Shown here: positions 1,971 to 41,983 of the stretch, in pieces | How the letters are laid out: each line of letters begins with the position of its first letter | Position numbering within the stretch: position 1 is the stretch's first letter | DNA from: Chloroflexota bacterium | GTDB taxonomy: Bacteria > Chloroflexota > Dehalococcoidia > UBA2247 > RBG-13-53-26 | NCBI GenBank assembly: GCA_026389585.1 | Contig: JAPLHP010000036.1 | Span: 41,366 to 105,365, forward strand | Direction: 5' to 3' | Length of the DNA: 64,000 bases | Notes under the pieces: generated by a model | The model's database searches: none | The model's input: the letters and a program-made list of their open reading frames with translations, nothing else | Told to the model about the DNA's origin: nothing | Translations under genes and position numbers: made by a program

Positions 1971-2456
1971 CTAACCTAATCCTCCAGCATCAGGGACAAA
2001 CGATCCTAAAAGTGAATAGTCCTCGTAACTGTCTACCAATCCCTTCCGCACTGGATTATTGAAGATGTACAGGGCTACATCCTGTAGTGCTTCTTCCTTC
2101 CTCAGAATATGGTCATAGTAACTTCTCTGCCATAGAGAATCACCATAAGCTTTCTTGAAGGCTACCCCACTCCTCTGCTTAAAGAGCTTCATGAATTTAG
2201 GTAAGGAGGAATCTTCCTTGCCAACGATTAGAAGATGAAGGTGATCGGGCATAAAGCAGTAGGCATAAACACTGAACCCAGCTCGTCTGGATGTCTCTTC
2301 AAGAGCAGGGAGGAGGCTATTGACAATGTTCTTGTGTTTGAAGTAGGGCTTCCCCTGTTCTGTAGAGCAAGTTATAAAATAGGCATAAGAACCGGCGTAG
2401 TCAAAGCTTCTAAGCCTCGGTGAGGAATTTCGTCGTCTCAAGTGATCTTTGATCAT
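1971..2456 (-). CDS. REP-associated tyrosine transposase (RAYT, IS200/IS605-like Y1 transposase TnpA_REP)
   Basis: 161 aa. HxH-type motif (PDHLHLLI) and C-terminal Y-containing region typical of Y1 HUH transposases. Flanked on both sides by REP-like palindromic repeats. Confidence 0.75.
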   Translation of the reverse strand: MIKDHLRRRNSSPRLRSFDYAGSYAYFITCSTEQGKPYFKHKNIVNSLLPALEETSRRAGFSVYAYCFMPDHLHLLIVGKEDSSLPKFMKLFKQRSGVAFKKAYGDSLWQRSYYDHILRKEEALQDVALYIFNNPVRKGLVDSYEDYSLLGSFVPDAGGLG

Positions 2457-3797: not shown

Positions 3798-3859
3798 ATT
3801 AACCTAATGATTCTGAAAACGCCATACTTTTGGCCTCTGAATCCCCTGGTGCGACAGGG

Positions 3860-19908: not shown

Positions 19909-20613
19909 TTAATCTATACGTGCCGCGAGCTTTGCCAAGTCCCAACTATGTTCATACAGATGCATCCCACTGCTGATGCAGATCAACTCACCGTCAGGAA
20001 CCCCGATCTCGGTCGCCATATACTCCTTCATAAGTTGCAGCGCGGCAAGATTGGACGGGAAGCCTCCCCATAGGTCCCAGGATCTGAAGTAAACGACAAA
20101 GTGGAAACGACCATAACGGATTCTGGTGTGTATGCCTCTCAGGCATTGTGGATCCCCCAGATAGATAGATTCCCGGCTGCCCACCGCCATGTACGCCTGA
20201 TTAGTATTGTGGCCGCCCTCCTTATACATCCGGATTACTTCAGGAATCTGCGACTCAAGATCCTCTCCGTAAGTGTACTGCTCGCCTTTTTCTTTGCAGG
20301 AAGTCATGAGGTAGGGTAAGTAGGTCTCGACATACTCCATAGTCGTTGGCGGGGGAACACCCTGCGGTACATCAGGTACCAGCGGCCGTATACCCGGTTG
20401 TCGTATCTGAACTACAGCCAAGTCAAGTTCCCTTCTGCGCTGCCCCTCAAAACTCCCTCGATCTATACGGTACTCATAACCCTCCGCGAGAACGCTGCGC
20501 AAACAGAGAAACCAGGCTTCCGGCAGGTCCCTAGCTTCAATCAAGGTTACACGCATAGACTTCTCAGTCATAGTCATAAGCCTTTCAAGACCCGGCTTTC
20601 GGTTCGCCTCCAC
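19909..20613 (-). CDS. thyA: thymidylate synthase, short archaeal-type ThyA
   Basis: DPQCLRGIHTRI...FHFVVYFRSWDLWGGFPSNLAALQLMKEYMA parallels ThyA catalytic Cys and the Q-YQRS-D-GLPFNIAS region. Adjacent to dut. Confidence 0.65.
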   Translation of the reverse strand: MEANRKPGLERLMTMTEKSMRVTLIEARDLPEAWFLCLRSVLAEGYEYRIDRGSFEGQRRRELDLAVVQIRQPGIRPLVPDVPQGVPPPTTMEYVETYLPYLMTSCKEKGEQYTYGEDLESQIPEVIRMYKEGGHNTNQAYMAVGSRESIYLGDPQCLRGIHTRIRYGRFHFVVYFRSWDLWGGFPSNLAALQLMKEYMATEIGVPDGELICISSGMHLYEHSWDLAKLAARID

Positions 20614-21281: not shown

Positions 21282-21896
21282 CTACACAACCCCGGGGGAT
21301 ATATATAATCTATGGTCCAGGATATACTTTTCCACAGCTCCAGGTACCATCCGGCGAATGGAAGCCCCCTGTGCTACCCGGCGTCGAATATCAGAGGCGC
21401 TGACATTTACTTGCGGCACCTCTACGAAGGTAACATGCCTGGAAACACCCGTGATACATGATTCGAGCCACTCCAGTGGAGGAGGGGCAAAACCCGGTCT
21501 GGTGAATGCTACCAACTGGCAAATCTGTATGAGGCGGGACGGCTCCTTCCATCGCGGCAGGTCTGAAAGCACGTCACTCCCTAAAATGAAACTCAGTTTT
21601 GCTCCAGCGCCCAGCTGCCTTTGCAGTATATCAATGGTATCAACAGTAAAGGAGGGGCCAGGTCTATCGACCTCAGTAGTAGATACCTGGAAGTATCTCT
21701 TCCCAGCAATGGCAAGGCGTACCATCTCCACTCGGTGTCTCGCCGAGGAAATAGGAACATCTGCCTTGAGCCAAGGCTGCCCTGCCGGGACAAAAAAAAT
21801 CGTCTCTAAGCCAAGAACACTTTTCACCTTTTGCGCCGCAGCAATATGCCCACGGTGGACGGGGTCAAAGGTGCCTCCAAACACACCTATATTCAT
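21282..21896 (-). CDS. nadD: nicotinate-nucleotide adenylyltransferase
   Basis: 204 aa, GGTFDPVHRGH HxGH motif. Confidence 0.9.
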   Translation of the reverse strand: MNIGVFGGTFDPVHRGHIAAAQKVKSVLGLETIFFVPAGQPWLKADVPISSARHRVEMVRLAIAGKRYFQVSTTEVDRPGPSFTVDTIDILQRQLGAGAKLSFILGSDVLSDLPRWKEPSRLIQICQLVAFTRPGFAPPPLEWLESCITGVSRHVTFVEVPQVNVSASDIRRRVAQGASIRRMVPGAVEKYILDHRLYISPGVV

Positions 21897-22093
21897 GTCA
21901 GTCCTACTGCTTTACAGGCCATCTGCACAATTTCCGCATAATACCGACCTTCCTACCAACTCTCAAAGTAGTAGCCTGTAGCACATGAACTACACGTGAC
22001 TGCACTTATTGGATGCAGGGAATCTTATTGTGTATTAGTAGTCTAGTAGAGTAGATGATGTTTGGATAATAGATAGTAATAATAGTAGTAGGC
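21897..22093. promoter_or_regulatory. AT-rich region downstream of dnaA, candidate DNA-unwinding element / DnaA-box region of oriC
   Basis: TAGTAGT-rich stretch with near-consensus DnaA box TTTGGATAA. Lies at the strand-switch next to dnaA. Confidence 0.4.
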
Positions 22094-23410
22094 CTATGTG
22101 GGAAGATTAGCCACAATCTGGTGGATGTTTCTCTGCATTGCGGGATCAGTAGAAACTACGCCGGCTATTCTATGATAGCCCCTGAGAATGGTGGAGTGGT
22201 CTCTGCCGCCAAGCAACTTGCCGATATCCTGCAGGGGGCAATTTGTCTTCTCTCGTACAAGGTAGATGGCAATCTGGCGCGCCATGGCTAATCGATTGTC
22301 TCTCTTACGGCCTTTCAGGGATTCTAAACTTATCTGGAAGTGGTCGGCCACTGCCTTCAATATCGATGCTGGGGTGGTAGCATATGAGCCTAAATTATCC
22401 GAAGGCATATCGCGCAGAGCCTGCTGCGCCAACTCCAGTGTAGGATGCTGCTGTGCCATCTTTGCATCGGCGATAAGCGCAGTCAGGGCTCCCTCTAGTT
22501 CCCTGATATTTCGCTGGCAGCGCTGGGCGATGAAATCAAATACAGCTTCGTCGATGACAACCTGCTGTTTCTCGGCTCTTGCGTGAAGGATGGCCAAACG
22601 TGTTTCCAGGTCTGGTGCTTCAACCTGGGCAATAAGCCCGCATTCGAGGCGGGAACACAAGCTGCTCTCCAAGGTAGTCATCGCCTTTGGAGGGCGATCG
22701 CTGGTGATAACCAACTGGCGGTCAGTGTCCTGCAGTTCATTGAAGGTGTGAAACAGTGTTTCCTGTGTCTGCGGTTTGCCAACCAAGAACTGGATGTCCT
22801 CTATGACGAGAATGTCAGCGTTCCTGAATTTGCTGCGAAACTCCTCTGTCTTTCTCTCCCTGATTGAACTTATGAACTCATTGGTAAATTGCTCACTGCC
22901 AGTATAAACGACCTTGAATCCGTTTTCGGAAGCTTCATTCCCTATCGCGTGTGAAAGATGGGTCTTTCCCAGACCAGATCCACCGTGGATGAAAAGCGGA
23001 TTGTACTGCCGCCCTGGCTCCTCAGATATTCCCAAGGCAGCAGCGTAGGCAAGACGGTTTGAACTCCCAACGACGAAGTTTTCGAAGGTATACCTCGGGT
23101 TGCCCACTGGTGGTGGCAGCTTCGATTGTGAGTGGTTCTGGCCCTGCCAGACAGAGTCCTGGTCCGGGCAGACCTGGAACAGAACCTCAACCTCATGCCC
23201 TACAAGGCTGATGAGCACCTTTATTACCAAAGAATGAAGACGCTTTTCCAGCCATTCCTTGGCGAAAGCGCTGGGAGTTCCAATTACAAATTGATTTCCT
23301 TGGTGACTGATCCCTACAGTGTCCTTTAGCCAGGTTTCGAAGTTGGCTTTGCTAACCTGAACCTGAAGGGCACCTTTGGCAGTCTCCCAAGTCTCTTTAG
23401 CTGTTTTCAT
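22094..23410 (-). CDS. dnaA: chromosomal replication initiator protein DnaA
   Basis: 438 aa, AAA+ Walker A GGSGLGKTHL, sensor motifs, C-terminal DnaA-box binding domain (LQDIGKLLGGRDHSTI). Confidence 0.95.
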   Translation of the reverse strand: MKTAKETWETAKGALQVQVSKANFETWLKDTVGISHQGNQFVIGTPSAFAKEWLEKRLHSLVIKVLISLVGHEVEVLFQVCPDQDSVWQGQNHSQSKLPPPVGNPRYTFENFVVGSSNRLAYAAALGISEEPGRQYNPLFIHGGSGLGKTHLSHAIGNEASENGFKVVYTGSEQFTNEFISSIRERKTEEFRSKFRNADILVIEDIQFLVGKPQTQETLFHTFNELQDTDRQLVITSDRPPKAMTTLESSLCSRLECGLIAQVEAPDLETRLAILHARAEKQQVVIDEAVFDFIAQRCQRNIRELEGALTALIADAKMAQQHPTLELAQQALRDMPSDNLGSYATTPASILKAVADHFQISLESLKGRKRDNRLAMARQIAIYLVREKTNCPLQDIGKLLGGRDHSTILRGYHRIAGVVSTDPAMQRNIHQIVANLPT

Positions 23411-24035
23411 ACCCCCCTTTATGGGCTAAAAAGTCTTGTTCTGCGACGTGAGGATTCGGAATTATTTAAGAAGCGAGAAATTACTGAACAAAGCCTTCTC
23501 CCCGAGGATGTGGCTGGATAAGTATAGAACTGCCCTCCTTGGGCTGGTCAAGGGCTTAACTTTATGTTGCGTTGCTCTTGAGGATTGGCCCCACTTATAT
23601 TTAGAAGGGTTGCCCCCGAAAAGCCTTTTATGAGTTTACAACCGTCCCTGTTTCCCAGGTCAAGGGGTTTACTTTATGTCTTGTTGGCTGATGTGAGATT
23701 CTCCCTGTAGTGACACACTCGATCTGTAAAATACCAACCAATGCCGTTTCATGTGTCAGCAAGTTGTTAGCAGCCTTGCTGCTAACAACGTTCCTGAGAC
23801 CTCTGCCTCGTCTATGCGTATCTTTGTGTGCTTGCACAGATATTTCACAAGGTTATTTGCGGTACCGGCATCAGCCTAGACTCCGCAATCCCGAGGTAAC
23901 GTGCCGACAACTTCCGGGTACCACTTGACAACCCCGTTTTCCCATGGTATTATGCAGTGCATAGTAGTATCAGCATAACAATACCCCTTCCCGGAGTCGC
24001 TGAGAGGAACGAGAAAGCAGACGAAATCGAGGTCA
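23411..24035. promoter_or_regulatory. dnaA upstream / divergent intergenic region: candidate oriC and promoters
   Basis: 625-bp gene-free region between divergent dnaA and PadR genes. Perfect palindrome TTGTTAGCAGCcttGCTGCTAACAA (~23761-23785). TTGACA-17-TATTAT promoter (~23925-23955) upstream of the PadR operon. Confidence 0.5.
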
Positions 24036-24440
24036 GTGAGCATGTGGGGAAACAAGAAGAACGTTGATGAGACAGAATCGGCTGACAAGAAGTTTCAGAA
24101 GGAGCTCGTTTCGGGTGTGGCTGCGCTGGTTCTCCTGAGCATCCTCAACGAGGCGAAGGAGCCCATGTACGGCTATCAGATTGCCAAGGTCATCGACGGA
24201 CAGGCAGAAGACGCGGCCGTGCTGAAGCAGGGAGCTCTCTATCCGGTCCTTCGATCACTGGAGAGCAGCGGGCTACTGGAAAGCCGCGTCGAACCGTCCG
24301 TCTCCGGGCCCCCGCGGCGGTACTACCAGATCACGGAGTTGGGTCGGGGCACACTGGCGCGCTGGCGGGAGATGTGGAACCAAATGAGAACCTTCGTGGA
24401 CACCGTGATGAAAGGAGAGGGCAATGATAAAGAGCGTTGA
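24036..24440 (+). CDS. PadR-family transcriptional regulator
   Basis: Winged helix MYGYQIAKVI...GALYPVLRSLESSGLLES typical of PadR. Confidence 0.85.
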   Translation: MSMWGNKKNVDETESADKKFQKELVSGVAALVLLSILNEAKEPMYGYQIAKVIDGQAEDAAVLKQGALYPVLRSLESSGLLESRVEPSVSGPPRRYYQITELGRGTLARWREMWNQMRTFVDTVMKGEGNDKER

Positions 24441-25332
24441 TGAGTATTTGAGTCTGCTCAGGAAGGAATTAGCTGGAAGCGACGCTGCTGTGGTCCAAGA
24501 TGCCCTCGCCGATGCTGAAGAGCATCTCCGAACGGCACTGGCCCAGGCCATCAATGGCAATCCCAACGCCTCAGAGGCAGAAGCCCTCCCGGCGATCGCC
24601 GAGAAGTATGGATCACCGCAAGAGATTGCGGCAGCCTACAGGCAAATGGAGGCCCGCCTTCCTGCCGGCCTGGGCAGGTACACATACGCGGGGCATCGAT
24701 CAGTCTTCTCCCGCTTCTTTGGTGTGTTGGCTGATCCCAGGGCCTGGGGTGCACTCCTCTATCTCCTTCTCTCCCTGGCCATCGGCATTGTGTTTTTCAC
24801 GTGGGCAGTCGTCGGTGTGTCTCTATCGCTCGGGCTGTCGGTTCTCATCGTCGGGCTGCCGTTTGCCGTTCTCTTTCTCCTGTCCATCCGCGGCATCGCC
24901 TTCATCGAAGGCCGCATGGTTGAGGCCTTACTCGGAGTCCGTATGCCCCGCAGGCGGATGTTCTCCGATGACAGAACCGGATTCTGGAAGAGAATCAAGG
25001 ACTTGTTCACACAAAGGATCACCTGGACAGCACTGGCATACTGCATATTGCGGCTAGGTCTCGGCATTGTCTACTTCGCCGTCTTCGCCGTTCTGGTTGG
25101 CCTCTCAATCTACCTCATCGCGATGCCAATTACCGTGGGTATTCTGGACATGCCGGCCTACATCATTCTGGGAAACACTGAGTATCTGGCCACTACTTGG
25201 TCCATACCCTTCTTCTTCCTGTTGGGCATGCTCCTGCTCACGGCCACCATGCACTTGACAAAGTTGGTGGGTAGGGTGCACGGGGCGCTGGCCAAGTTCA
25301 TGCTGGTGTCGAAGAAGGACTGGGAGGATTAA
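24424..25332 (+). CDS. DUF1700/HAAS-type membrane sensor-like protein (PadR-associated)
   Basis: N-terminal MIKSVDEYLSLLRKEL...EAEEHLR (DUF1700 family), then a multi-TM C-terminus. Overlaps the PadR stop. Confidence 0.6.
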   Translation: MIKSVDEYLSLLRKELAGSDAAVVQDALADAEEHLRTALAQAINGNPNASEAEALPAIAEKYGSPQEIAAAYRQMEARLPAGLGRYTYAGHRSVFSRFFGVLADPRAWGALLYLLLSLAIGIVFFTWAVVGVSLSLGLSVLIVGLPFAVLFLLSIRGIAFIEGRMVEALLGVRMPRRRMFSDDRTGFWKRIKDLFTQRITWTALAYCILRLGLGIVYFAVFAVLVGLSIYLIAMPITVGILDMPAYIILGNTEYLATTWSIPFFFLLGMLLLTATMHLTKLVGRVHGALAKFMLVSKKDWED

Positions 25333-25391
25333 AGGTTGTCGCGCGTCGTGAGCAAAGACAGAGGAGCATCGGATCAAAGAGGAGGAGACAG

Positions 25392-26312
25392 ATGAGGAAG
25401 TCACTGACTGGCCATCTTGCAGGAAGGCAACAGAAGCCCTGGGTGCATCGCATAGGGCAGCCATTGAGCCCCATCCCCATCATGCTCATCGTTACCCTCG
25501 CCTCCCTGGTCGGCTTGATGGTGCTGGCTTCCTCCGCATGTACGACGCAGTCAGCCGTAAGCACCAAGACCAATAACTTCAACGTCGGTGACTCTCTCAC
25601 CCTCAATGTAACCACGCTGGGCGGGCGGATCGAGGTCAGTGCCGGCTCAGACAACGTTGTCACGGTGAGGGCCGAACTAAGAGACATCCGCCGGATCAAG
25701 TACCTAGCCATTCAGAGTGGCAATGAGGTCACCATTACGGCTGAAAAGACAGGGAAGTGGTGGTTCCCTGCCGGCAATACCAGGGCAGACATCTATGTGA
25801 CTGTGCCCCCTCACACGGCCCTGAAGCTGAGTACCAGCAACAGCAAGATCGAGGTCCAGGGAACAACCGCCGGTGGTATCCTCGAGACATCGAACGAATC
25901 CATAGTCCTCGACAATGTCAAAGGTGACTATGTTGCCACAACCAGCAATGGCGACGTTGCGATCTATACCATAGAAGGCAGTGCCTACGTCAAGACATCC
26001 AACGGCGAGGTAGGATTGAACGAAGCCAAAGGGGAATTCAACGCCACAACCAGCGGCGGAAACGTGTCCTTCAGCGGCCAGATGACGCCCGGAGGAAGCA
26101 ACCGTCTGGTCACCAGCAACGGGTTCATTGAGGTAGCGTTGGCCGGAACGCCCAGTGTCCAGCTTGACGCCTCCACCACCAACGCAAAGGTCGAGTGTGC
26201 GTTGCCGATACTGGCCACGAAGACCGATACACACCACCTCGTAGGAACAATCGGTGCCGGAGAAGCGAATCTTTACATCGAGACTTACAACGGGAACGTG
26301 ACCATCAAGTAG
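25392..26312 (+). CDS. DUF4097-family beta-repeat protein (putative adhesin-like, LiaG-like)
   Basis: 306 aa, signal/TM then repeated TSNG.I.V/NGNV beta-strand units. Confidence 0.6.
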   Translation: MRKSLTGHLAGRQQKPWVHRIGQPLSPIPIMLIVTLASLVGLMVLASSACTTQSAVSTKTNNFNVGDSLTLNVTTLGGRIEVSAGSDNVVTVRAELRDIRRIKYLAIQSGNEVTITAEKTGKWWFPAGNTRADIYVTVPPHTALKLSTSNSKIEVQGTTAGGILETSNESIVLDNVKGDYVATTSNGDVAIYTIEGSAYVKTSNGEVGLNEAKGEFNATTSGGNVSFSGQMTPGGSNRLVTSNGFIEVALAGTPSVQLDASTTNAKVECALPILATKTDTHHLVGTIGAGEANLYIETYNGNVTIK

Positions 26313-27048
26313 CCACCCAGCAGATATCCCAAGAGGCAAGACAGCCTCGACAGCAGGGTCCACGACCAAACCCTCAGAGTCGAAGAACAGGAGCAGCAGA
26401 CGACATGCACAGACCACGCGCCTGAGCATCAATAGACCACAGCCCTATGAGGACCATGGTGCATCTAGCTAGAGTTCTTCATGGCGTTGCCTAATGCATG
26501 AGGCTTCACTCTGAGGCTTAAAGACAGCACACCCTGTTGTGGCGTCCATCAATCCTGCAGGGGGTGTTTCTGGCGTCAACGTAGCCTGGTCAAGGCAACC
26601 CCCTCGCAAGCAAGGCGTCTCGGGCGCTTTTTTGTAGGACATAGTGGTAGGCACCCTTCGACGGCCTTGACCAGGCGGGGCGTTGGAACAAGCGTCGAAC
26701 CAAGAGGGCTTCGCCCTCTTGCCTGGAACCGCGCACCCCCATCGTCCCTCGTATCCCTCTCTCGATCTTGGGCCTGGTAGAGCAGTGCACCTTAGTGGTG
26801 TCATGAGTATCACTACACCTTGTCTTTTCATTCCGTAGATCAAGAAAAAACTATTTAGTGGTAATAGTACGGCAGATGCTATTGTGCAACAGCGATGGCT
26901 GATAGGGGTGGCCCAAAGCTACGGGAAGGTGTGCAAAAGAGGTGCATAGAATCGGCGGGCTGTGCATGGTGGTTAGCAAATTGTTAGCAAAAGTGTCAGA
27001 ATATGCTGAGGGTTGACATGGATCAGGGGGCATTTTGTGAGGGGAAAG

Positions 27049-27125
27049 TGGCGCGCCTAGAGGGATTCGAACCCTCGACCCTCGGTTCCGAAGACCGATG
27101 CTCTGATCCGCTGAGCTATAGGCGC
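27049..27125 (-). tRNA. tRNA-Arg (anticodon TCG)
   Basis: Minus-strand GCGCCTATAGCTCAGCGGATCAGAGCATCGGTCTTCGGAACCGAGGGTCGAGGGTTCGAATCCCTCTAGGCGCGCCA folds as a cloverleaf. Anticodon loop CTTCGGA, CCA encoded. Confidence 0.85.
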
Positions 27126-27202
27126 TGGGGTGGACGGAGGGATTCGAACCCTCGATCTCCAGGGCCACAACCTGGCGCCTTAAACCACTGGGCTACGCCC
27201 AC
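27126..27202 (-). tRNA. tRNA-His (anticodon GTG) with G-1
   Basis: Minus-strand GGTGGGCGTAGCCCAGTGGTTTAAGGCGCCAGGTTGTGGCCCTGGAGATCGAGGGTTCGAATCCCTCCGTCCACCCCA. Anticodon loop TTGTGGC, extra 5' G pairs with C73. Directly abuts tRNA-Arg. Confidence 0.85.
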
Positions 27203-27221
27203 CACGAGGCCATTTTAGCAT

Positions 27222-27950
27222 TTGCAGGAGGCGATTATCAAGCTGAGAAAGCTACCCCGGGAGAAGGTGGGGGCTGTTGTTGCTGCCGCTGGCAATAGCC
27301 GGCGGATGGGTGGAGTGGACAAGATTTTTGCGGACCTCGCTGGCAAACCGGTCCTGGCTCATGTGCTTGAAGTGTTTGAGAAATGTGGTGCAGTGGATCA
27401 GGTGGTGGTCGTGCTGAATGAGGTGAGCCTGGAGCGAGGGCGAGAGGTGGTAAAGGAAGGAAGGTTTCACAAGGTGGCGCAGGTATGCGGCGGTGGAGAA
27501 CGGCGCCAGGATTCGGTAGCCGAGGGGCTGAAAGGGCTGGGAGGGTGCCACTGGGTGGTGATTCATGATGGGGCGCGTCCTTGCATCACTCCTGATCTGA
27601 TAGAGCAGGGGTTAGAGGAGGCCTCTCAGACTGGGGCGGCTATTGCCGCGGTACCTGTGAAGGAAACCGTAAAAATAGTTGAAGCCGAGGGGACAATTCG
27701 GAATACCCCTCAGCGAGAAAACCTCTGGATGGCACAGACCCCGCAGGTGTTTCGCTTCGATATAATAATGGAGGCATACAGGCAGGCTAAAGGGGAAGTG
27801 ACGGATGATGCTGCTCTGGTGGAGGCACTTGGGTATAAGGTCAGAGTCTACATGGGCTCCTATGATAATATTAAGATTACCACGCTAGAGGACTTAGCCC
27901 TGGCAGAGATCATTTTGAGGAGGAGACATGAGGGTTGGCATCGGCTATGA
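27222..27950 (+). CDS. ispD: 2-C-methyl-D-erythritol 4-phosphate cytidylyltransferase
   Basis: VVAAAGNSRRMGG...DGARP motifs. True start likely a GTG near 27264 after GGAGAAGG. Confidence 0.85.
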   Translation: MQEAIIKLRKLPREKVGAVVAAAGNSRRMGGVDKIFADLAGKPVLAHVLEVFEKCGAVDQVVVVLNEVSLERGREVVKEGRFHKVAQVCGGGERRQDSVAEGLKGLGGCHWVVIHDGARPCITPDLIEQGLEEASQTGAAIAAVPVKETVKIVEAEGTIRNTPQRENLWMAQTPQVFRFDIIMEAYRQAKGEVTDDAALVEALGYKVRVYMGSYDNIKITTLEDLALAEIILRRRHEGWHRL

Positions 27951-28419
27951 TGTTCATCCTTTAGTGCAGGGAAGAAGGCTTCGGTTAGGGGGTATAGAGA
28001 TACCCTTTGACAAGGGGCTTGATGGCCATAGCGATGCCGATGTTCTGGTGCATGCCATTATCGATGCTTTGTTAGGCGCGGCTGGTTTAGGGGATATAGG
28101 TATTCACTTTCCCTCCTCTGATCCGAGGTATAAGGACATCTACAGTATCACGCTTCTTCGCCAGGTAGCCACGCTGCTCCAAACGGAAGGATGGCAGGTG
28201 TGTAATATTGATGCTACCATAGTGGCGGAAAAGCCTCACCTGTCCCCCTTTGTCCCTCAGATGCGGAAATTGATCGGCCAGACCCTGGGTATCGGCATAG
28301 AGCAAGTGGGGGTAAAAAGCACTACTTCTAAAGGGCTCGGCTTTTTGGGGGAAGAGAAGGCGATAGCTGTATATGCTGTGGCCTTAGTGGACAAGGTCGC
28401 ACATGAGGTCAAAACCTGA
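27928..28419 (+). CDS. ispF: 2-C-methyl-D-erythritol 2,4-cyclodiphosphate synthase
   Basis: MRVGIGYDVHPL...GHSDADVLVHA canonical IspF; overlaps the ispD end. Confidence 0.9.
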   Translation: MRVGIGYDVHPLVQGRRLRLGGIEIPFDKGLDGHSDADVLVHAIIDALLGAAGLGDIGIHFPSSDPRYKDIYSITLLRQVATLLQTEGWQVCNIDATIVAEKPHLSPFVPQMRKLIGQTLGIGIEQVGVKSTTSKGLGFLGEEKAIAVYAVALVDKVAHEVKT

Positions 28420-28477
28420 GAACACTGAGAGTCTATTCGGGCTATTGATATTAAACAGTCCAGGTTAGGGAGCGATC

Positions 28478-29857
28478 GTGAAGATATATAACACTCTTTC
28501 AGGGCGGGAAGAAGAGTTCGTGCCTCAGGGTGAGGTGGTGAGGATGTATGTCTGTGGTGTTACTCCTTACGCTGAGTGCCATCTTGGCCATGCCATGAGC
28601 TATGTAGTCTTCGACGTGGTGCGACGCTACCTGGAGTTTAAGGGATACAAGGTGAAGCATGTGCAAAACTTTACCGATATTGACGACAAGATTATCGATC
28701 GAGCGCACAAATCGGGCACTTCTCCTGCCGAGTTGGCTGAAAAGTTTATTTCCCAATACTTTGTTGATATGGATAAGCTGAATATTAAGAGGGCTCACGT
28801 GTATCCTAGAGCTACTGAAGAGATACCCAAAATCATTGAAGTAGTTCAGGGCCTGGTTGACAGGGGGCATGCCTACCAGGCAGGTGGCGATGTCTACTTC
28901 AGGGTGAGCAGTGCTCCGGATTATGGAAAGCTCAGCCACCAGGGCCTTGAAGCCCTGCAAGCGGGGGCGCGTGTAGAAGTAGGAGCCGGCAAGGAATATC
29001 CTCTTGATTTTGCCTTGTGGAAGGCGGCGAAGCCCGGTGAGCCGTGGTGGGAAAGCCCTTGGGGCAGGGGGAGACCTGGCTGGCACATTGAATGCAGCGC
29101 CATGTCCCTGAGACACCTGGGTGAGACCTTAGACATACATGGCGGAGGACAGGACCTGATCTTTCCGCATCATGAGAATGAGATAGCCCAATCGGAAAGC
29201 TTTACTGAGGTCACCCCCTTCGTCAAGTACTGGATGCATAATGGTTTCGTGCAACTGGGTGGAGAGAAGATGAGCAAGTCCCTGGGGATTCTTGTTACCA
29301 TCAAGGAGGTCTTGGAACGCTTTACTCCTGATGCAATACGGTTCTTCATCCTGAGCTCCCACTATCGTAGCCCGATCAGCTTCAGCGAGGAGAACCTGGC
29401 GGCTGCGGAAAAGGGTGTGGAAAGACTGCGGCAGTCAGCCCTTGACAATGGTCAGTGTGAGGTGAAAGGATCGACAGGGGCAATTGACGCCGAATTGTTT
29501 CGGCAGAGGTTCATCGATGCCATGGATGATGACTTCAATACAGCTCAGGCCGTGGCGGCCTTGTTCGACCTGGCCAGGGAGATTAACCGGGCTACAAGTC
29601 AAGGTGCTGATGTGCGGCAGGCTCGAGAGAATTTGATTGAACTGGGAAACGTTCTGGGGTTTACCTTTCAAGAGAAGGAAATCAAGTTGGCTGCCGAGCC
29701 CTTCATTGACTTGCTGATTTCGATTCGTGCTGAGCTGAGGAACGAGAAGCAATGGCGGATGGCTGACAGAGTCCGCTCGTGCTTGAAGGATCTGGGGATA
29801 GTTCTCGAGGACACGCCTCAAGGAACTATTTGGAAGTATGAGAAACCGATGGGGTGA
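28478..29857 (+). CDS. cysS: cysteinyl-tRNA synthetase
   Basis: 459 aa, HIGH (CHLGHAMS) and KMSKS (KMSKSLGI) motifs. Confidence 0.9.
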   Translation: MKIYNTLSGREEEFVPQGEVVRMYVCGVTPYAECHLGHAMSYVVFDVVRRYLEFKGYKVKHVQNFTDIDDKIIDRAHKSGTSPAELAEKFISQYFVDMDKLNIKRAHVYPRATEEIPKIIEVVQGLVDRGHAYQAGGDVYFRVSSAPDYGKLSHQGLEALQAGARVEVGAGKEYPLDFALWKAAKPGEPWWESPWGRGRPGWHIECSAMSLRHLGETLDIHGGGQDLIFPHHENEIAQSESFTEVTPFVKYWMHNGFVQLGGEKMSKSLGILVTIKEVLERFTPDAIRFFILSSHYRSPISFSEENLAAAEKGVERLRQSALDNGQCEVKGSTGAIDAELFRQRFIDAMDDDFNTAQAVAALFDLAREINRATSQGADVRQARENLIELGNVLGFTFQEKEIKLAAEPFIDLLISIRAELRNEKQWRMADRVRSCLKDLGIVLEDTPQGTIWKYEKPMG

Positions 29858-30013
29858 GGGGTGGTTGCGGATTCAGGCTTCATTCTCGCCGTGACCCTGA
29901 TTTCTCTATAATGTCTGTAGCCATTGCAGACATGCTGTTGCAGATGTGCTTGACGAACACTCAAGTATGTGCTAGTCTCAGCACAAATCTAGCTGAAAAG
30001 GAGGGTTTAGACT

Positions 30014-30157
30014 ATGTCACAGGCTTACTGCGTGAAGTGCAAGAAAAAGGTGGAGATCCTGACCCCAAAGCAGATCATCATGAAGAACAAGCGTCCTGCG
30101 ATCCAAGGTTTGTGCCCGAAATGCAAGACCAAGGTATTCCGCATAGGTAAGGGCTAA
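30014..30157 (+). CDS. 47-aa double-CxxC zinc-ribbon protein, hypothetical
   Basis: MSQAYCVKCKKKVEILTPKQIIMKNKRPAIQGLCPKCKTKVFRIGKG. AAGGAGGG RBS 6 nt upstream, TTGACG-17-TAGTCT promoter upstream, stem-loop downstream. Below the ORF-table size cutoff. Confidence 0.55.
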   Translation: MSQAYCVKCKKKVEILTPKQIIMKNKRPAIQGLCPKCKTKVFRIGKG

Positions 30158-30167
30158 TCTCAGTACT

Positions 30168-30194
30168 ACGGGGGTCACTTGAGGTGGCCCCCGT
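30168..30194 (+). terminator. stem-loop after small zinc-ribbon gene (possible terminator, no U-tract)
   Basis: ACGGGGGTCAC-ttgag-GTGGCCCCCGT inverted repeat 11 nt after the stop codon. Confidence 0.35.
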
Positions 30195-30359
30195 ACTTCA
30201 CCTGCCACCATAGCCTGCTTGGCGGCCTCTATAGGCGTTGCGGAAAGCCTCATGGCTGTCCCTGGCTGTAGAACGAGGGCTCTCGCATAGAGCACACCCC
30301 TCGTTTTTCTGGTCTGTGCGCTGTAGAATGCAGACACTCTACTGGACGGGAGGTTATTC

Positions 30360-30542
30360 GTGAAGAATGTTCAGCTTTCCGTAGACGGCAACACCCTCAC
30401 TATCACGGTGGACTTGACCAAGGAGTTTGGGCCATCGTCCTCTGGTAAAACCATCATCATTGCCTCAACCGAAGGGAATTTCCCGCTGCTCGGGCGCACT
30501 GAAGTAATTGGCCTGAACGTCTATCGCAAGAAGCAGCGGTAA
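30360..30542 (+). CDS. 60-aa hypothetical protein (GTG start)
   Basis: Extended -10 TGTAGAAT at ~30332 and GGGAGG RBS 7 nt before GTG. Sequence MKNVQLSVDGNTLTITVDLTKEF... with no recognisable domain. Confidence 0.45.
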   Translation: MKNVQLSVDGNTLTITVDLTKEFGPSSSGKTIIIASTEGNFPLLGRTEVIGLNVYRKKQR

Positions 30543-34565: not shown

Positions 34566-35198
34566 TTATGTGTTCTTAACCGCCCGTTTTTCAACCAGTC
34601 TTGCAAGCTCACCTTCATCACCTATGAGAAAAATCTTATCACCCTCGAGTACTATCTTCAGGAAGTGATGGTTCTCCCGCATTTTCTGCTTGAATTCGGA
34701 GGTAGGGTAGACAACCGGATTTACCTCTCTTCCCAGCGTCTTTTGAGACGGACTGATGAGTGAGACGATTTCCGAAAAGGTTGTCTTGCCTATTACCATC
34801 ATATCTATATCACTTGTTCTTTGTTCCGCTCCGCTGGCGATGGAACCGAAGATAAAGGCAACCTGTATCTTTCGCGCCGCCGGTCCTAAACTTTGCCGTA
34901 GCACGTCCGCCACTCCGAACGTCTTGGTTACAATACTCTTAAGCTCTGCGTAAATGGGACAACTCTTGTTTGCCCGGTAATAAACTTGCCTTCCCTGCAC
35001 CTCGCGGCTGATGATGCCGGTGTCCGTCAGGTTTTTCAGCTCCCGCTGTACCGTTCCGCGACCAGTTTTAACGGCATCCAGTATTTGTTTCGTATAGAAG
35101 GAGCTATCTGTTTGGCCGTAAAGAAATGCCAGGACTGCCTGCCGGGTTTTGCCGAAAAGGCCGCTGCATAATGAACTATCAGTCATATTCTTACCCAT
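34566..35198 (-). CDS. winged-HTH + minimal nucleotidyltransferase (MNT) fusion protein
   Basis: N-terminal ArsR-like wHTH (GKTRQAVLAFLY...GTVQRELKNLTDTGII), then NTase motif FGSIASG...SDIDMMV. Confidence 0.7.
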   Translation of the reverse strand: MGKNMTDSSLCSGLFGKTRQAVLAFLYGQTDSSFYTKQILDAVKTGRGTVQRELKNLTDTGIISREVQGRQVYYRANKSCPIYAELKSIVTKTFGVADVLRQSLGPAARKIQVAFIFGSIASGAEQRTSDIDMMVIGKTTFSEIVSLISPSQKTLGREVNPVVYPTSEFKQKMRENHHFLKIVLEGDKIFLIGDEGELARLVEKRAVKNT

Positions 35199-36077: not shown

Positions 36078-36952
36078 GGCAGGGACGCACGCAGAGCGGC
36101 AATGATTCGTTCTCCCTTGTTGGGGTCTTCACCAGCCGCACGCTTCTTGGCGACATATTCTTCGAGAATGCCCAGCGCTGCAACGTTTGAAACGTAGCGG
36201 AACAGGCCCGTTGCCCAAGCTGTCGAGCCTGGATTATGTGGATTCGTGTGATATTTCCAGAAATCGATCTCGTATCCTAGCATATCGTCCAGTGCACTGC
36301 TCTTGTCTCCAAAGATCTTGGTTTCTCTGCCAGGGTCTTCAACAAGCTTGGTGATTGCGAAAGCGCCCACCACAAAGCGGTCTCTGCGGTCTGGAGGCTC
36401 GGTGGTGAGAAGGGCTATCTTGCCTACTCTCGCGCCCCTGATCTTTCTGGGGCGGATCATCGTGCCATGTTCATCGGAGTCCCATCCCGCTGCGAAGTAG
36501 AAATCAATCAACGCTGTCGACTCATAGCATGGACTCCGTAGAGCTAGGTCCTGACCAACAAAATCTCTGCATCTGCTGAGTAGGCAGTACGGTCCTCCGA
36601 ATCTTAAATTGTGGACGTATGCTTTGTCACTGCATATGCCCTTGTATCCCTTATCATTCCAGTTGCACTTGAAGGCAATATTGCCATCCTCTTTCTTGCC
36701 AACTTCGCGGCGCTGCAATCCATCCTCGATTTCTCGCGCCAGAGTCTCGATCCTACAGCGCCGGTTCTCAACTATTGTCCGATGTATCTCATTACTGGGA
36801 TTGGCTGCTTCCTGGAGGCGTTGGAACGTCTCCTCCGCCGTTGAAAGGTGTTCTGCTGCCTGTTGGTAGACGAGACCATGGATCAGAGCCCCAATGTTGT
36901 TTAGTTGCTGATCCAGGGACTCGCGGATAGTGCGTAGATCGTCATTGCCCAT
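36074..36952 (-). CDS. hypothetical cysteine-rich protein, last gene of defense operon
   Basis: Start at MGNDDLRTIRESL overlaps the GmrSD stop. Cys cluster CNWNDKGYKGICSDKAYVHNLRFGGPYCLLSRC. No domain recognisable by eye. Confidence 0.45.
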   Translation of the reverse strand: MGNDDLRTIRESLDQQLNNIGALIHGLVYQQAAEHLSTAEETFQRLQEAANPSNEIHRTIVENRRCRIETLAREIEDGLQRREVGKKEDGNIAFKCNWNDKGYKGICSDKAYVHNLRFGGPYCLLSRCRDFVGQDLALRSPCYESTALIDFYFAAGWDSDEHGTMIRPRKIRGARVGKIALLTTEPPDRRDRFVVGAFAITKLVEDPGRETKIFGDKSSALDDMLGYEIDFWKYHTNPHNPGSTAWATGLFRYVSNVAALGILEEYVAKKRAAGEDPNKGERIIAALRASLP

Positions 36953-38858
36953 TAGTTCGTTCCGGATATGCCCACAACCTAACCGCCAAGTCGGCCAGTC
37001 TCTCGCTACGCGTCCTGATCGTAGTCTCGTTCCACACATCGTCATCGGAAAACTGCTGAAAATAGGAGTTGAGGATCAGCAGGCTCTGTTTTGTGATTTC
37101 CGCGCGCTTTGCCCTGAAGGGGCCGTTGCTGACTTCAGAATTGAGCGGTTGGGTCAGCAGTGTCAGGTTGCCGAGGCTGTGAATGGAAGACCAACGCCTC
37201 GATTCCATCTCCTTTTTTTCAGCCGCCTGATGTTCTGGGTAGGGCCATTCTTCTGGCTTGAACTTCTGGGGCATTATGTGCTCAATCGTCAGATTGTTGT
37301 TGATCGGCACAGGTGAAAGCTGCGATTCCTGACTTGGGGTCCGGTTGGCCAATTCGAGGGCAGTGAGAACCATGCGCATCCTCTTGGGGCCGAGGGAATC
37401 GTACAACGGTTCGTACATAAGGCTCTTTAGGAACGCCTCGTTGCCTGGCCAAACAGAGCTATCCCCCTCCAATGAAAGCAATTCGCGACGCACAGACACA
37501 TGACTCGGCATTCCTTCTCTGCTCAGCTTGGTAAGAAGACCAAGAAAAATGCGGTTGTAATTCTTGGGCGTCAGCCTGCATATGGCCCTTCGAACAATGT
37601 AGGACTCAATGTCAGCCAGTATGCGGGCAAACTCCTCTGCTGCTATCTGGTCTCGGTCTTCACACAGCCAGAGCATGAACGGGTAGACGGTTGTCGTGTC
37701 CAGTGCCCGAAGTCTCTGGGCCAGTATTCCTAGCCGACTGGTGTCATCTGCCTCCAGAAGTGAGCGGAATACTGAGCTCGACCGCTTGGCTGTTTCCAGC
37801 TCCAGTTCTAGGGAGCGCTCGGTCAACTCACCGTCCCACCACTCTTTGAATTCCTGGTAAAGATGTCCCATCTTGATCTCGTGACCTGCACGATACGTGA
37901 GATAGTGAAAGAAGAACAAGTCCAGCCGACTGCGGAACAACCTCCCTTGCCTTTCCTTTTCCTTCCAGAACTTGCCTGTCGACCCACCCGCTTCGTCATA
38001 ATCCTTCCACCATTGGTTGTATAGGGCATTCACATCCTTGTTCTGCCTACTGGCATACAGGAAGATGAAGTTCCTGATCAAGTCGGAGGGTTCGAGTGGG
38101 ACACCTCTATAGTTGAGGGTCTCGAATATCACCTGTGGATCGTCCTCCACGTCAAGTTGTATCTCGACGATTTGCACATAACGCATTACCGCTTCAAAGA
38201 GTAAGTTAGCGAGTTCTCTCATCGACTCTTGGCTAGACGTTTGGCTCGGTAGCGCCTCCTCCTCATCAATGCCACTTAGGAATCTCTTGATGACATCGTG
38301 GAAGTAGAAATAGGCTTCGACCAAGGCCGGGCGCGGGGGAACTAGCTTCTTCCGATGGAGCTTCTGCGGATATTTGGCTGCAAGTGCTTCGGCGGATCCT
38401 GCCTTCATCACATTCTTGACATCTTCTTGATAGGCATTCGTGGGCCACACCTTGAATTGCTCATCGGCGTTGTAGAATGGGCCGGGATTACCAGTTAGGC
38501 GGCCGAGCTGCATCTTGAGGTAGTCATCGCCCGACTCGACCACTGCATCTCTAAAGGCAGCCAGGAAGACTTGTAGGGTGAGCAATCGCTGTTGCCCATC
38601 TATGATTTCAGAAGCAGGCATTTGCCTGATCACGGTGGGCACCTGGCTCAGAACAATGGCACCAAGGAAATGCTTGCGAATTGTGTTCCTTGAAGCTCCC
38701 TTATGAACCTGCACCAACCTGGCCTGTTCCGCTATGTCACCCCAAAGCGGTTGCCATTGCTGGTCTTGTGTCCAAACATACCCACGCTGAAAAATCGGCA
38801 CCAGGTAGCGCCGCTGCCTTTCAAATAGATCGAATACGGTGATCTTATCTGTCTTCAT
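36942..38858 (-). CDS. GmrSD-family type IV (modification-dependent) restriction endonuclease, DUF262 + DUF1524
   Basis: 638 aa. N-terminal ParB-like DUF262 with IIDGQQRL motif. C-terminal HNH-like DUF1524 (NNNLTIEHIMPQK...NLTLLTQPLN). Confidence 0.8.
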   Translation of the reverse strand: MKTDKITVFDLFERQRRYLVPIFQRGYVWTQDQQWQPLWGDIAEQARLVQVHKGASRNTIRKHFLGAIVLSQVPTVIRQMPASEIIDGQQRLLTLQVFLAAFRDAVVESGDDYLKMQLGRLTGNPGPFYNADEQFKVWPTNAYQEDVKNVMKAGSAEALAAKYPQKLHRKKLVPPRPALVEAYFYFHDVIKRFLSGIDEEEALPSQTSSQESMRELANLLFEAVMRYVQIVEIQLDVEDDPQVIFETLNYRGVPLEPSDLIRNFIFLYASRQNKDVNALYNQWWKDYDEAGGSTGKFWKEKERQGRLFRSRLDLFFFHYLTYRAGHEIKMGHLYQEFKEWWDGELTERSLELELETAKRSSSVFRSLLEADDTSRLGILAQRLRALDTTTVYPFMLWLCEDRDQIAAEEFARILADIESYIVRRAICRLTPKNYNRIFLGLLTKLSREGMPSHVSVRRELLSLEGDSSVWPGNEAFLKSLMYEPLYDSLGPKRMRMVLTALELANRTPSQESQLSPVPINNNLTIEHIMPQKFKPEEWPYPEHQAAEKKEMESRRWSSIHSLGNLTLLTQPLNSEVSNGPFRAKRAEITKQSLLILNSYFQQFSDDDVWNETTIRTRSERLADLAVRLWAYPERTNGQ

Positions 38859-39210: not shown

Positions 39211-41976
39211 CTACCATGGCCGCATCAATGCTTCCCTCTTCGCAGCTCCGCTCAAGACCTGGGCACAGGACTCCCAGTCTGTGCGCTCGATTTTCTGATA
39301 ACGGATCTCGAACGGGTGCTTCTCAGGAACGGCATCAATGATGCGCTTGGCTTGCTCCTCCTCACCGATAGCAACGTCAATCCAGACATCTTCAAGTACG
39401 TCAGGAATCTGCCCAAACAGGCTAAATATACTCTGAAGCCTAATGGACAATAATTGGTGAACGCGATCCTCGACAGATCCCAAGTAGCGCATGTTGTAGA
39501 CGTATACAATATCGTTGAGCTGCCCGATACGCTGTATCCTACCTTTGCGTTGTTCGAGACGCGTGGGATTCCATGGAAGGTCCAGGTTGATGAGCGTGCC
39601 GAGTCTCTGAAGGTTCAGCCCCTCAGATGCGGCGTCAGTCCCGAGCAGGAGGCGGATCTGCCCATTACGCACGCCAGCCTTAATCTCCTCCCGGTCGACC
39701 GGCGTGAATGAGCCGTCCTTCCACATGCCGGATTTACCGCTGCCTGCGTAAATAGCGATTGGCTCGTCGGGGAAGTCAAGGACGAGTTCTTTGGCCAGCC
39801 ACTGCACTGAATCATAGTACTGGCTGAAGACGATGCACCCCTTATCGAGCCAGCTTCGCCCCCGGAGGCAATCAAGGACTACGGAGTACTTGGGGTCTCG
39901 CTCCTGATTGGCTTCAAGCGCCTTGACGAATCTTTCGAGCAATACCCGCTCCTCATCGGTCAGAGTCTTTAACGTGCTCAGGGATGCGGCAGGATTCTCA
40001 TCCTCGCTCTCCGCGTCCGAATCCAAGGTGAACGAGCCGAGGTCTCGCCACGACGCCAGCATGGTCTCGGCTGTGGCTTTGCCTGCCGCGATACTGCTGC
40101 CCACCCGGCGCAGGAGGAGCGTGCGAAGAAAACCTGAGCCCTTCATGCGGGCACCAAGCTGCCGACAGAACTCCTCAGCCAGTTGGTATGCATCTCTGAG
40201 GAAGAGGGGTAAGCGGATGGCATCCTCGTCGCGATCCCCTAGAAGTTCGACACGGATCGGTTTTAGGTACGGCTCGCCGGTTTCAGGGTCGATTGTCTCC
40301 TCAAGATACTTGCGGCTCCGCCGTACGATATGGCGGATGAACGGATTATGCTGGTCAACAAAACGAGGGAACATGGCGTGCACACGGGCCTTGTCGGGAG
40401 GATTAAGACGGTCCCAATCGCTGCCGCCGGCAGACACTTCCATGTCGGTCATTCCCAGCGACCGACGCAGGATCTCGAAATCTCGATGCTCGGAGGATGG
40501 GGGTAATGGTGTGCGGACCCATTGCCACATGTCCAGTTCATCCTCCAGCTGTCTCGCCGTGCCCAGTACCAGCGGCAGGGCTCTTTCGGCATGGTGCCAC
40601 TCACTCCATGCGCCACCAAGGACAGCCTCGCTACCACGGCTCAGGATGTCAAGGAGATCCCAAGCCTCCACAGGGCGGATCTGAACGGGTGTCGCAGTCG
40701 CCAGGAGCATGCTCTTGGTGTGCTTTGACAGTTCATAGAGGAATTGAAGCAAGTTGTTCGGATCAGGTTTCTCCCCGTCACGACCTTCGCCCAAGTTTCG
40801 ACGGCGGGCGTTGTGTGCCTCGTCAACGATGATGCATTCATAGTCAAGGTGTTTGAGGTGCTCAGAATCCTCGCACTGAAAGACGGCCCTTGAAGTAGGA
40901 ACAATGCCAACGCGCCGCGGACAATTGCGTATTGCCTGGGGACCAACAGAAGGGTACTCGACACCGCGCTCATCCACCCATTGCTTCCCTGTCCATACGG
41001 CGGAGGGCATGTCAAGCAGGTCGTTGAGCTCATCCCGCCACTGCCAGACAAGCGCTTTCGGTGCGAGCACCAGGATTGGTTTGGTGCTGCATAGGGCCAT
41101 CAGCTCAGCCGCCATGGCGAGCTGAATGGTCTTGCCAAGGCCGACCTGGTCGGCGAGAACAAATCGCGCTCCTCCGGGGCTATTGAGATGTGCATCGAAC
41201 GCCAGCTTCACGAAGAACTTCTGGTGCTCCCAGAGACCCGCCTGCTGACGATAGACCGATGCCTCGATAAAGACCGATGCAGGTGTTGGAGCCACTGGCA
41301 ACGTGCCTGAGGGCCTCGCCCAGTCCTCCACCGAACTTATGACAGAGCGTTTGCTGAGGCGAGCGACATCTTCGATGACAAATTCCGCAAGCGGCACCGC
41401 GGCATGGTGAGTCCATAGGGCATCAAACTCTTCTTGGACCCAGGCCACAGCCTCCGGCGATGAGTCTTCCCACAGAAGTTCGTAATTCAGTGTCCATGCT
41501 GACCGTGATTCATTGACGCTGCCCAAGAAGGCAGTGCGACTCCCATCAGCAAGCATGATTACCCCGGCCTTGCCGTGAACGAGCCCGAAGTACTCATCCG
41601 GGAGCACTCTCACTTGTAGCTTCCCGCTGCGCAGGAACTCGTGAAGACGCGAAAAGCGGTTACGAGTTGCCTCTCCCCCAGATTCGACCAGCGTCTCGGG
41701 ACGCGAGCTACACCACTCCTGTCGAACGGCTGCAGCGGCGGCTCGAGCTGTGGCAACGTCTTGAGGTCGCAGCCCCGAGTTGCACACGATGCGTACAAGT
41801 CCGGTCACGCTCTCAATGGCTTCGCCAGCCACCTCAAGGATAGATCCGGAGAAGTATCCGGCGATGCGGTCATAAGCTTGCGCACCATGCAGGCGGTCTG
41901 TGAAGAATGACCGGTCCAGTCGTTGCCGCCTGGAGGAAAAACGCCGAATTTGGCTGTGGGCAACAGGGTCGTTCAT
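39211..41976 (-). CDS. PLD-family nuclease domain fused to SNF2/DEAD-like helicase
   Basis: N-terminal HKD motif (HGKAGVIM...GSVNES). Helicase motifs: Walker A GLGKT, DEAH box IIVDEAHNARR, C-terminal helicase motif LLLGTDAASEGLNLQ, motif VI QRKGRIQRIGQ. Start taken at MNDPVAHSQ. Confidence 0.8.
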   Translation of the reverse strand: MNDPVAHSQIRRFSSRRQRLDRSFFTDRLHGAQAYDRIAGYFSGSILEVAGEAIESVTGLVRIVCNSGLRPQDVATARAAAAAVRQEWCSSRPETLVESGGEATRNRFSRLHEFLRSGKLQVRVLPDEYFGLVHGKAGVIMLADGSRTAFLGSVNESRSAWTLNYELLWEDSSPEAVAWVQEEFDALWTHHAAVPLAEFVIEDVARLSKRSVISSVEDWARPSGTLPVAPTPASVFIEASVYRQQAGLWEHQKFFVKLAFDAHLNSPGGARFVLADQVGLGKTIQLAMAAELMALCSTKPILVLAPKALVWQWRDELNDLLDMPSAVWTGKQWVDERGVEYPSVGPQAIRNCPRRVGIVPTSRAVFQCEDSEHLKHLDYECIIVDEAHNARRRNLGEGRDGEKPDPNNLLQFLYELSKHTKSMLLATATPVQIRPVEAWDLLDILSRGSEAVLGGAWSEWHHAERALPLVLGTARQLEDELDMWQWVRTPLPPSSEHRDFEILRRSLGMTDMEVSAGGSDWDRLNPPDKARVHAMFPRFVDQHNPFIRHIVRRSRKYLEETIDPETGEPYLKPIRVELLGDRDEDAIRLPLFLRDAYQLAEEFCRQLGARMKGSGFLRTLLLRRVGSSIAAGKATAETMLASWRDLGSFTLDSDAESEDENPAASLSTLKTLTDEERVLLERFVKALEANQERDPKYSVVLDCLRGRSWLDKGCIVFSQYYDSVQWLAKELVLDFPDEPIAIYAGSGKSGMWKDGSFTPVDREEIKAGVRNGQIRLLLGTDAASEGLNLQRLGTLINLDLPWNPTRLEQRKGRIQRIGQLNDIVYVYNMRYLGSVEDRVHQLLSIRLQSIFSLFGQIPDVLEDVWIDVAIGEEEQAKRIIDAVPEKHPFEIRYQKIERTDWESCAQVLSGAAKREALMRPW

Positions 41977-41983
41977 GGTCTCC

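Follow-up and report, generated by a model that had tools for sequence, protein, structure and literature searches.

We describe here a candidate replication origin in a window of 64 kb, which is the whole stretch of DNA that we have analysed. It belongs to the genome of an uncultured Dehalococcoidia (Chloroflexota) and contains an intact dnaA gene on the minus strand, which codes for an initiator protein of 438 amino acids. We consider it rather probable that the spacer between dnaA and a nadD-like gene, together with the last dnaA codons (approximately 21998–22128), is the unwinding module of the chromosomal origin oriC, with a mode of action similar to that of the basal unwinding system (BUS) of Bacillus subtilis. 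An initial annotation of this DNA had also placed an origin at dnaA. That is still the best reading, but not on the grounds then given, among them a strand switch and the gap upstream of the gene; an array of DnaA-trios in BUS geometry had not been recognised.

The spacer has 197 bp (21897–22093) and directly abuts the stop codon of dnaA, so that the candidate lies next to the initiator gene, as is looked for in an oriC. It is followed by the gene for a nadD-like cytidylyltransferase (21282–21896), by dut and by more genes on the minus strand. A tract rich in AT and in TAG triplets had been noticed here, with a near-consensus DnaA box. Both are present: TAG reaches 10 copies in 70 nt, where the average over the window is 0.66, and the box TTTGGATAA has a single mismatch. 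What gives the spacer its character is the array TAGTAATAATAGTAGTAG, six TAG/TAA triplets in phase and antisense to dnaA (Table 1). No other run of four or more TA[AG] triplets exists on either strand of the 64 kb. The array lies within the least stable duplex of the whole window (22020–22100), which comes out in first place with window sizes of 40, 60 and 80 nt. The least stable 60-mer starts at 22024, with −64.7 kcal/mol against a mean of −87.0 (standard deviation 4.7), and has the lowest GC content, 0.25. These positions provide a candidate for the AT-rich duplex-unwinding element expected in an oriC.

The same elements are found in the same order and on the same strand in B. subtilis. The BUS in the incC part of its oriC is formed by DnaA-boxes 6 and 7, DnaA-trios and an AT-rich element (Richardson 2016, PMC6669920, PMC8287927, PMC10721633); the published scaffold is 5'-TAGTAGAAGTAATAGTAG-GGCC-TGTGGATTT-GTGGATAAGT-3'. 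In the window we read 5'-TAGTAATAATAGTAGTAG-GCCTA-TGTGGGAAG-3', that is to say trios, a short GC-rich spacer and a TGTGG-type site. Both arrangements stand just downstream of dnaA, both have six in-phase TAG/TAA trios antisense to it, with the same length, and in both there is AT-rich DNA on the distal side of the trios. However, the proximal box of the window has three mismatches and falls within the last dnaA codons. A clear co-oriented second box and an upstream cluster similar to boxes 1–5 of B. subtilis are not found in the window, and the gene downstream is nadD-like instead of dnaN. The published rules for the search of a BUS (PMC8287927) are a minimum of three NAN triplets in succession, with a preference for 3'-GAT-5', a correctly oriented box with no more than two mismatches at 0–16 bp from the trios, and a second co-oriented box in tandem with no more than four mismatches. 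The six TAG/TAA triplets agree with the first rule; the boxes are discussed below. The TAG doublets to the left of TTTGGATAA were also considered as a second BUS, but they are out of phase and never give three in-phase NAN triplets, so this candidate was rejected.

The origin oriC2 of Helicobacter pylori is also located downstream of dnaA and has DnaA-trios (PMC8235120, PMC8287927). Its unwinding module shows a very similar layout, TAGTAACAGTAGTAG-GGG-box. It differs by the presence of a demonstrated second cluster, oriC1, upstream of dnaA, while none is seen in the window.

The initiator protein itself is consistent with the use of trios. Its best solved relative is the DnaA of B. subtilis in the cryo-electron microscopy complex with the BUS (8BTG, E = 3e-113), in which the residues that capture the trio bases have been reported (PMC10721633). 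Four of these five residues are kept in the window, namely N187, I190, I193 and R202, and K222 is also identical. Two substitutions have to be borne in mind: E228, which contacts guanine in B. subtilis, is a threonine, and E223 is a proline. We infer that DnaA binding, unwinding and origin firing take place at the spacer. DnaA would dock on weak boxes at or near the end of its own gene and would form an oligomer that grows in the 3' to 5' direction over the plus-strand array of six in-phase trios. This oligomerisation would open the adjoining AT-rich DNA (22020–22073), and loading of the helicase would follow.

A comparison with relatives gives further evidence. We have used 160 related loci, designated with L numbers; the counts of boxes and trios refer to 145 loci and the count of duplex stability to 84. 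The closest DnaA relatives come from contigs of metagenome-assembled genomes, with identities of 95% (L003), 73% (L001) and 68% (L002), while many others have about 50%. The clade of the window is formed by L001/L081, L002/L084, L003, L082 and L083, with DnaA proteins 64–95% identical to that of the window. All five clade relatives with sequence available past the dnaA stop codon (L001, L002/L084, L003, L082 and L083) have a run of three or more trios that begins no more than 12 nt from it (2–11 nt). About 139 other Dehalococcoidia loci were compared, and not one has such a run at this distance. Each clade relative has no other strict trio run in its locus, or hardly any.

The trios have been conserved while the rest of the spacer has changed. 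The spacers of the clade have diverged past alignment apart from the trios, and trio-type 8-mers are the only motifs common to all six downstream spacers (34 shared 8-mers, against 0–8 in shuffled sequences). An indel of 3 nt, which keeps the phase, distinguishes the array of L003 from that of the window. The dnaA stop codon is also the place of the least stable 60-mer in the loci of four of the five relatives (L001, L003, L082 and L083). Equivalents of the GC-rich spacer are GGCC in L001 and GGGC in L002; in L001 a tandem pair, GACTGCACT and TCATGCATA, stands ahead of GGCC and the trios. A TGTGCAT motif is conserved in the relatives, including L083 and L082, at about 77–90 nt past the stop codon, and its TGCAT core is invariant in alignment A1. 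Its counterpart in the window is GGATGCAGG (22011–22019), which is degenerate and weak, with four mismatches.

The other Dehalococcoidia have a richer arrangement in the same place. In most of them three co-oriented boxes, 20–21 bp apart, are found in the first 100 nt or so after the dnaA stop codon (for example at 6966–7025 in L005 and at 7388–7440 in L020), and at least two co-oriented boxes are present in the downstream spacer of 75 of the 145 loci. Farther downstream there are (YTA)n runs, with the trios antisense to dnaA in 54 of the 145 loci and in the sense strand in 19. These runs often have tandem boxes ahead of them, in the canonical BUS layout, as is the case for TTATCCACTAATCCACACtc-TTATTATTA in L060 and TAATCACACTTTCAACACca-TTACTATTATTA in L138. 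A box with no more than three mismatches precedes the trios by 16 nt or less in 55% of the loci, compared with 23% at control positions. In 67 of 84 loci no 60-mer is less stable than one found in the 450 nt that follow dnaA; the expected number is 4.3. Box clusters, trios and low stability across these loci lead us to consider the spacer downstream of dnaA as the origin region for the class. Three boxes, and tandem boxes with trios 80–320 nt on, look like the class-wide layout of the Dehalococcoidia origin as judged from these sequences. The origin of Dehalococcoides mccartyi 195 is available as DoriC ORI10010023 and is listed in the supplement of PMC8287927. We also observed that the three-box clusters are often bracketed by ACATAAA ... 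TTTATGT.

The spacer of the window has the features of this typical dnaA-obg/nadD origin in its synteny, in the side of dnaA on which it lies, in the strand of the trios and in being the least stable DNA of the locus. The synteny follows from L020, where the next gene is a fusion of obg and nadD. This gene (L020, 7676–9382) codes for a fusion of an Obg GTPase with NadD of 568 amino acids, a form of the gene seen after the origin in several Dehalococcoidia; the clade of the window has nadD alone, either directly after dnaA or one gene further. The difference is in the boxes. The typical origins have three strong tandem boxes at 20–100 nt and trios at 80–320 nt after the stop codon, while the clade of the window has no box cluster and its trios begin at 2–11 nt.

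The boxes of the different loci can be related to the DnaA protein which should read them. The residue of domain IV which aligns with the histidine of 'TTVIH' in B. subtilis is an arginine in the window, within GGRDHSTILRGY. In the loci fetched there is perfect covariation between this residue and the box core: histidine goes with GTGGA in 34 loci and with GTGCA in none, arginine goes with GTGCA in 23 loci and with GTGGA in none. Rarer cores (GTCGA, GTTGA and GGGGA) pair with other domain IV sequences. The residue is a candidate specificity determinant for position 5 of the box. Since the window has the arginine form, a preference for TGTGCAnAA is predicted for its DnaA, and the TGTGCAT motif of the relatives fits this type of box. 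Our literature search on the TTATGCACA/TGTGCATAA box found nothing relevant.

The composition of the genes gives a modest indication of the same kind. Raw GC skew tracks the coding strand, and we have used instead a regression of the GC skew at the third codon position of each gene (GC3 skew) on the orientation of the gene and on whether it lies to the left or to the right of a split point. If the window is divided at dnaA (23 kb), the effect of the side is +0.050 (bootstrap 95% confidence interval 0.015–0.085). When the split point is moved from 2 to 63 kb, the best position is 26–27 kb and the second 22 kb; the orientation-corrected skew changes sign at about 21–28 kb. In core minus-strand genes, excluding an accessory island described below, the mean coding GC3 skew is 0.143 to the left (n = 19) and 0.019 to the right (n = 9), with p = 0.025 in a one-sided Mann-Whitney test. 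The corrected skew gives modest support to a change of polarity of the origin type near dnaA. The rpsF-ssb-rpsR operon, at 4.5 kb from the spacer, is co-oriented with a leftward fork.

Several observations weigh against an origin in this place, and most of them concern the DnaA boxes. The initial annotation saw no canonical boxes, and in fact a perfect TTATCCACA is absent from the whole 64-kb window; there is no strong DnaA box. Sites with one mismatch to it occur at the rate of chance (13 found, 11.1 expected). The best correctly oriented site for a BUS, TGTGGGAAG, is separated from the trios by 5 nt, and its three mismatches are above the published limit of two. Its position codes for protein and is not kept as a box in the relatives, which have TATGCATGA (L001) and TATGCACGA (L002). 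The adjacent TTAGCCACA, common to the window and L003 only, is inverted, GGTGGATGT (three mismatches) is 28 nt away and TTTGGATAA sits on the wrong side of the six trios for the BUS geometry. Because a box with no more than two mismatches is not found within 16 bp as the rule demands, we call the module BUS-like and not a confirmed member of this group. A search for a lineage-specific box had also been proposed: the pattern GTG[CG]ANAA, which includes the arginine type TGTGCAnAA, has no match in either flank of dnaA, and it is also absent from the flanks in L001, L002 and L003. Since the predicted TGTGCAnAA is missing from the flanks, the docking site of DnaA is the weakest link of our interpretation. 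Finally, conservation of synonymous sites at the 3' end of dnaA is weakly raised (0.55–0.67 against 0.49), which does not settle the matter.

The lack of box clusters in both flanks had been named beforehand as an observation that would speak against an origin here. With the strict consensus it is nearly what we find, since TTATCCACA with one mismatch at most gives two boxes at and after the 3' end of dnaA (22061 and 22107). The relaxed consensus TTATNCACA with one mismatch gives three boxes in 87 bp (at 22029, 22061 and 22107; cluster 22029–22115). They are the tightest such triple in the window, with P = 0.023 by simulation, a liberal value because the tract is AT-rich and this is left out of account.

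Some of the larger-scale patterns are not favourable either. The initial annotation took a strand switch at the 5' end of dnaA as the pattern of an oriC. A block of plus-strand genes does exist at 24036–30542, but it covers only about 6.5 kb, and nearly all genes are again on the minus strand from 30910 to 63947. The switch is merely local and by itself is weak evidence; over the 40 kb that lie to its right, the majority of the genes would face replication head-on. Much of this flank is an accessory or defence island, therefore the orientation of its genes says little about replication. The cumulative GC skew, which had been proposed as a check, does not have its lowest value at dnaA: in the 64 kb covered by the window its raw value is −2.37 at dnaA and goes down to −2.52 at the end of the window.

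These facts could indicate that the origin is elsewhere, perhaps in the vicinity of dnaN or at a cluster of boxes which has moved, and that the TAG tract is a relic or has another role, either as an AT-rich upstream element of the next gene or as a site for a nucleoid protein. The clade has lost the three-box cluster of the other Dehalococcoidia, neither type of box is matched in the flanks, the genes to the right and the raw skew do not have the expected pattern, and both L001 and L002 have a −10-like TATAAT some 70 nt beyond their trios. Such an explanation has difficulty in accounting for a run of trios which keeps its phase and position in the relatives when the surrounding spacer cannot be aligned, and which, in the window as in four of five relatives, is found where the duplex is least stable. 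The corrected GC3 skew changes polarity near dnaA and nowhere else in the window, and the 64 kb contain no second trio run or box cluster. An origin elsewhere is for us the main rival interpretation, although an unlikely one.

The other flank of dnaA has also to be considered. The initial annotation described a gene-free region of 625 bp upstream of the gene, and we agree on its limits (23411–24035). It proposed this region as a candidate origin segment and described a palindrome in it. The palindrome is present and perfect, with arms of 12 nt and not 11. It folds with a free energy of −15.5 kcal/mol (z = −5.6 with respect to shuffled controls). It has no run of T and hence is not an intrinsic terminator. 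It is not a conserved element: it is absent from the 160 related loci and appears in degenerate form in L003, whose DnaA is 95% identical. It could be an operator; it is not part of the origin core. The upstream region has no cluster of either type of box, only a single site with two mismatches (GCTGGATAA at 23513); it contains no trios and no stability minimum, with a GC content of 0.43–0.54. Its conserved part is formed instead by two tandem blocks (Table 1), which in the dnaA-sense strand have the form ACATAAAG-N-CCCTTGACC-N19-20-TA(T/A)ACT, with a short inverted repeat in the spacer. Both blocks are found in the window, L003, L001, L081 and L002, while L082 has the proximal block only. From their layout and direction they are probably promoter or regulatory elements of dnaA. 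Their function is inferred because the spacing of 19–20 nt between TTGACC and TAtACT exceeds that of a typical sigma-70 promoter, so it is uncertain whether they may be considered as textbook promoters of this kind. They were rejected as a class-wide dnaA promoter motif, since an ACATAA...TTGAC block upstream of dnaA is found in this clade only. The region appears to serve mainly for the expression and regulation of dnaA and of the divergent PadR operon, as promoter and regulatory DNA, rather than as an origin core.

It is in this region that two further explanations would have their place. One is a bipartite origin, comparable to incAB and incC in B. subtilis or to oriC1 and oriC2 in H. pylori, in which the upstream gap binds DnaA and loops to the downstream module. 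There is indeed non-coding DNA on both sides of dnaA, the conserved blocks are repeated, a box with two mismatches stands at 23513 and the ACATAAAG of the blocks is present, too, at the edge of the box cluster of other Dehalococcoidia. However, a cluster of boxes is what such an upstream partner should have, and it is not there; the blocks have a −35/−10-like layout facing dnaA, one of them is missing in L082 and their presence upstream of dnaA is restricted to the clade. We find a bipartite origin distinctly unlikely. The other explanation, which was the first candidate of the initial annotation, is that origin function or unwinding resides in the upstream gap itself, with its palindrome. This gap is the larger gene-free region and the palindrome is far beyond chance, but DNA of such GC content without a stability minimum or trios, in which the palindrome is degenerate in the 95%-identical relative and absent from the 160 related loci, makes a very improbable origin.

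Within our preferred interpretation, an unwinding module downstream of dnaA, it is a tentative possibility that the clade runs a stripped-down origin. The three-box cluster would have been lost, and trios abutting the stop codon, the AT-rich element and weak docking sites in the last dnaA codons would remain. If this were so, initiation would depend mostly on recognition of trios and single strands, or on a diverged box read by the arginine form of domain IV, and the initiator gene would physically overlap its own origin. In other respects the finding is an ordinary one, since origins adjacent to dnaA with DnaA-trios are the expected arrangement; the modest twist is a clade in which the trios persist and the box cluster does not, a case of interest for the question of which parts of an origin are really needed. 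The analysis gives a concrete prediction of the origin for an uncultured lineage of Dehalococcoidia, with coordinates, strand, trio array and candidate boxes, and it corrects which flank of dnaA matters. The comparative by-products, namely the class-wide layout, the covariation of the domain IV residue with the box position and the clade with trios but without a box cluster, are maybe more useful.

Table 1. Location of the features found in the window
Feature	Position	Strand	Remarks
Promoter-like site for the nadD-like gene, TTGAGA-17-TATTAT	21938–21966	−	consensus match only
Two TGCA-core sites, GACTGCACT and GGATGCAGG	21998–22019		
Candidate AT-rich duplex-unwinding element	22020–22073		TAGTAG doublets 22036–22054; boxes TGTGTATTA 22029–22037 and TTTGGATAA 22061–22069
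DnaA-trio array TAGTAATAATAGTAGTAG	22074–22091	+	TAG TAA TAA TAG TAG TAG (3'-GAT/AAT-5'); six in phase, antisense to dnaA
GC-rich spacer GCCTA, from trios to proximal box	22092–22096	+	read from sequence; covers the complement of the dnaA stop codon (22094–22096)
dnaA initiator gene	22094–23410	−	Pfam DnaA_N, Bac_DnaA (AAA+), Bac_DnaA_C (C-terminal helix-turn-helix, HTH)
Candidate box TGTGGGAAG	22097–22105	+	3 mismatches to TGTGGATAA; BUS orientation; within the last three dnaA codons
DnaA box TTAGCCACA	22107–22115	+	1 mismatch; inverted with respect to BUS orientation; inside the dnaA 3' end
Two tandem conserved blocks	23518–23686 (23518–23574, 23630–23686)	−	two copies of a direct repeat of 57 nt, at a distance of 112 bp
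Perfect palindrome GTTGTTAGCAGC-ctt-GCTGCTAACAAC	23763–23774 / 23778–23789		3-nt loop
Strong sigma-70-like promoter for the PadR operon, TTGACA-17-TATTAT with TG	23925–23953	+	11/12 matches
Island: nucleotidyltransferase	34566–35198		
Island: GmrSD	36942–38858		
Island: DUF499/DUF1156/DUF3780/SNF2-PLD helicase system	39211–48833		
Island: HD-domain protein	49248–50600		
Island: ImmA/IrrE-HTH regulator	52229–53377		

The rest of the window has some other features. On the 5' side of dnaA the gap is followed by the PadR-sensor-DUF4097 operon, which starts at 24036 on the plus strand. Beyond it there are tRNA-Arg and tRNA-His genes on the minus strand, and then ispD-ispF-cysS. The two tRNA genes, tRNA-Arg(TCG) and tRNA-His(GTG), are found at 27049–27202, between the DUF4097 gene and ispD, with zero spacer between them; a tRNA-like sequence is apparently also present upstream of dnaA at the matching place in L001 and L082. 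A scan with Rfam of the region 21.5–24.5 kb gave nothing credible. The accessory or defence island extends over 33600–55700; it is mostly on the minus strand and has in part a higher GC content.

To the left of dnaA a group of five boxes with no more than two mismatches is found at 8.8–9.1 kb, but they have mixed orientation, lie inside metF and were rejected as a chance occurrence. At 1971–2456 (minus strand) there is an IS200-like Y1 transposase, adjoining an open reading frame of 415 amino acids (2634–3881, plus strand) without a Pfam match; it may not be a real gene, because its GC skew resembles that of minus-strand coding DNA. Next to dut, at 19909–20613 (minus strand), we find a protein of 234 amino acids that matches thymidylate synthase weakly and only in its C-terminal part (E = 2.8e-6). 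The protein has 85–97% identity in the clade relatives.

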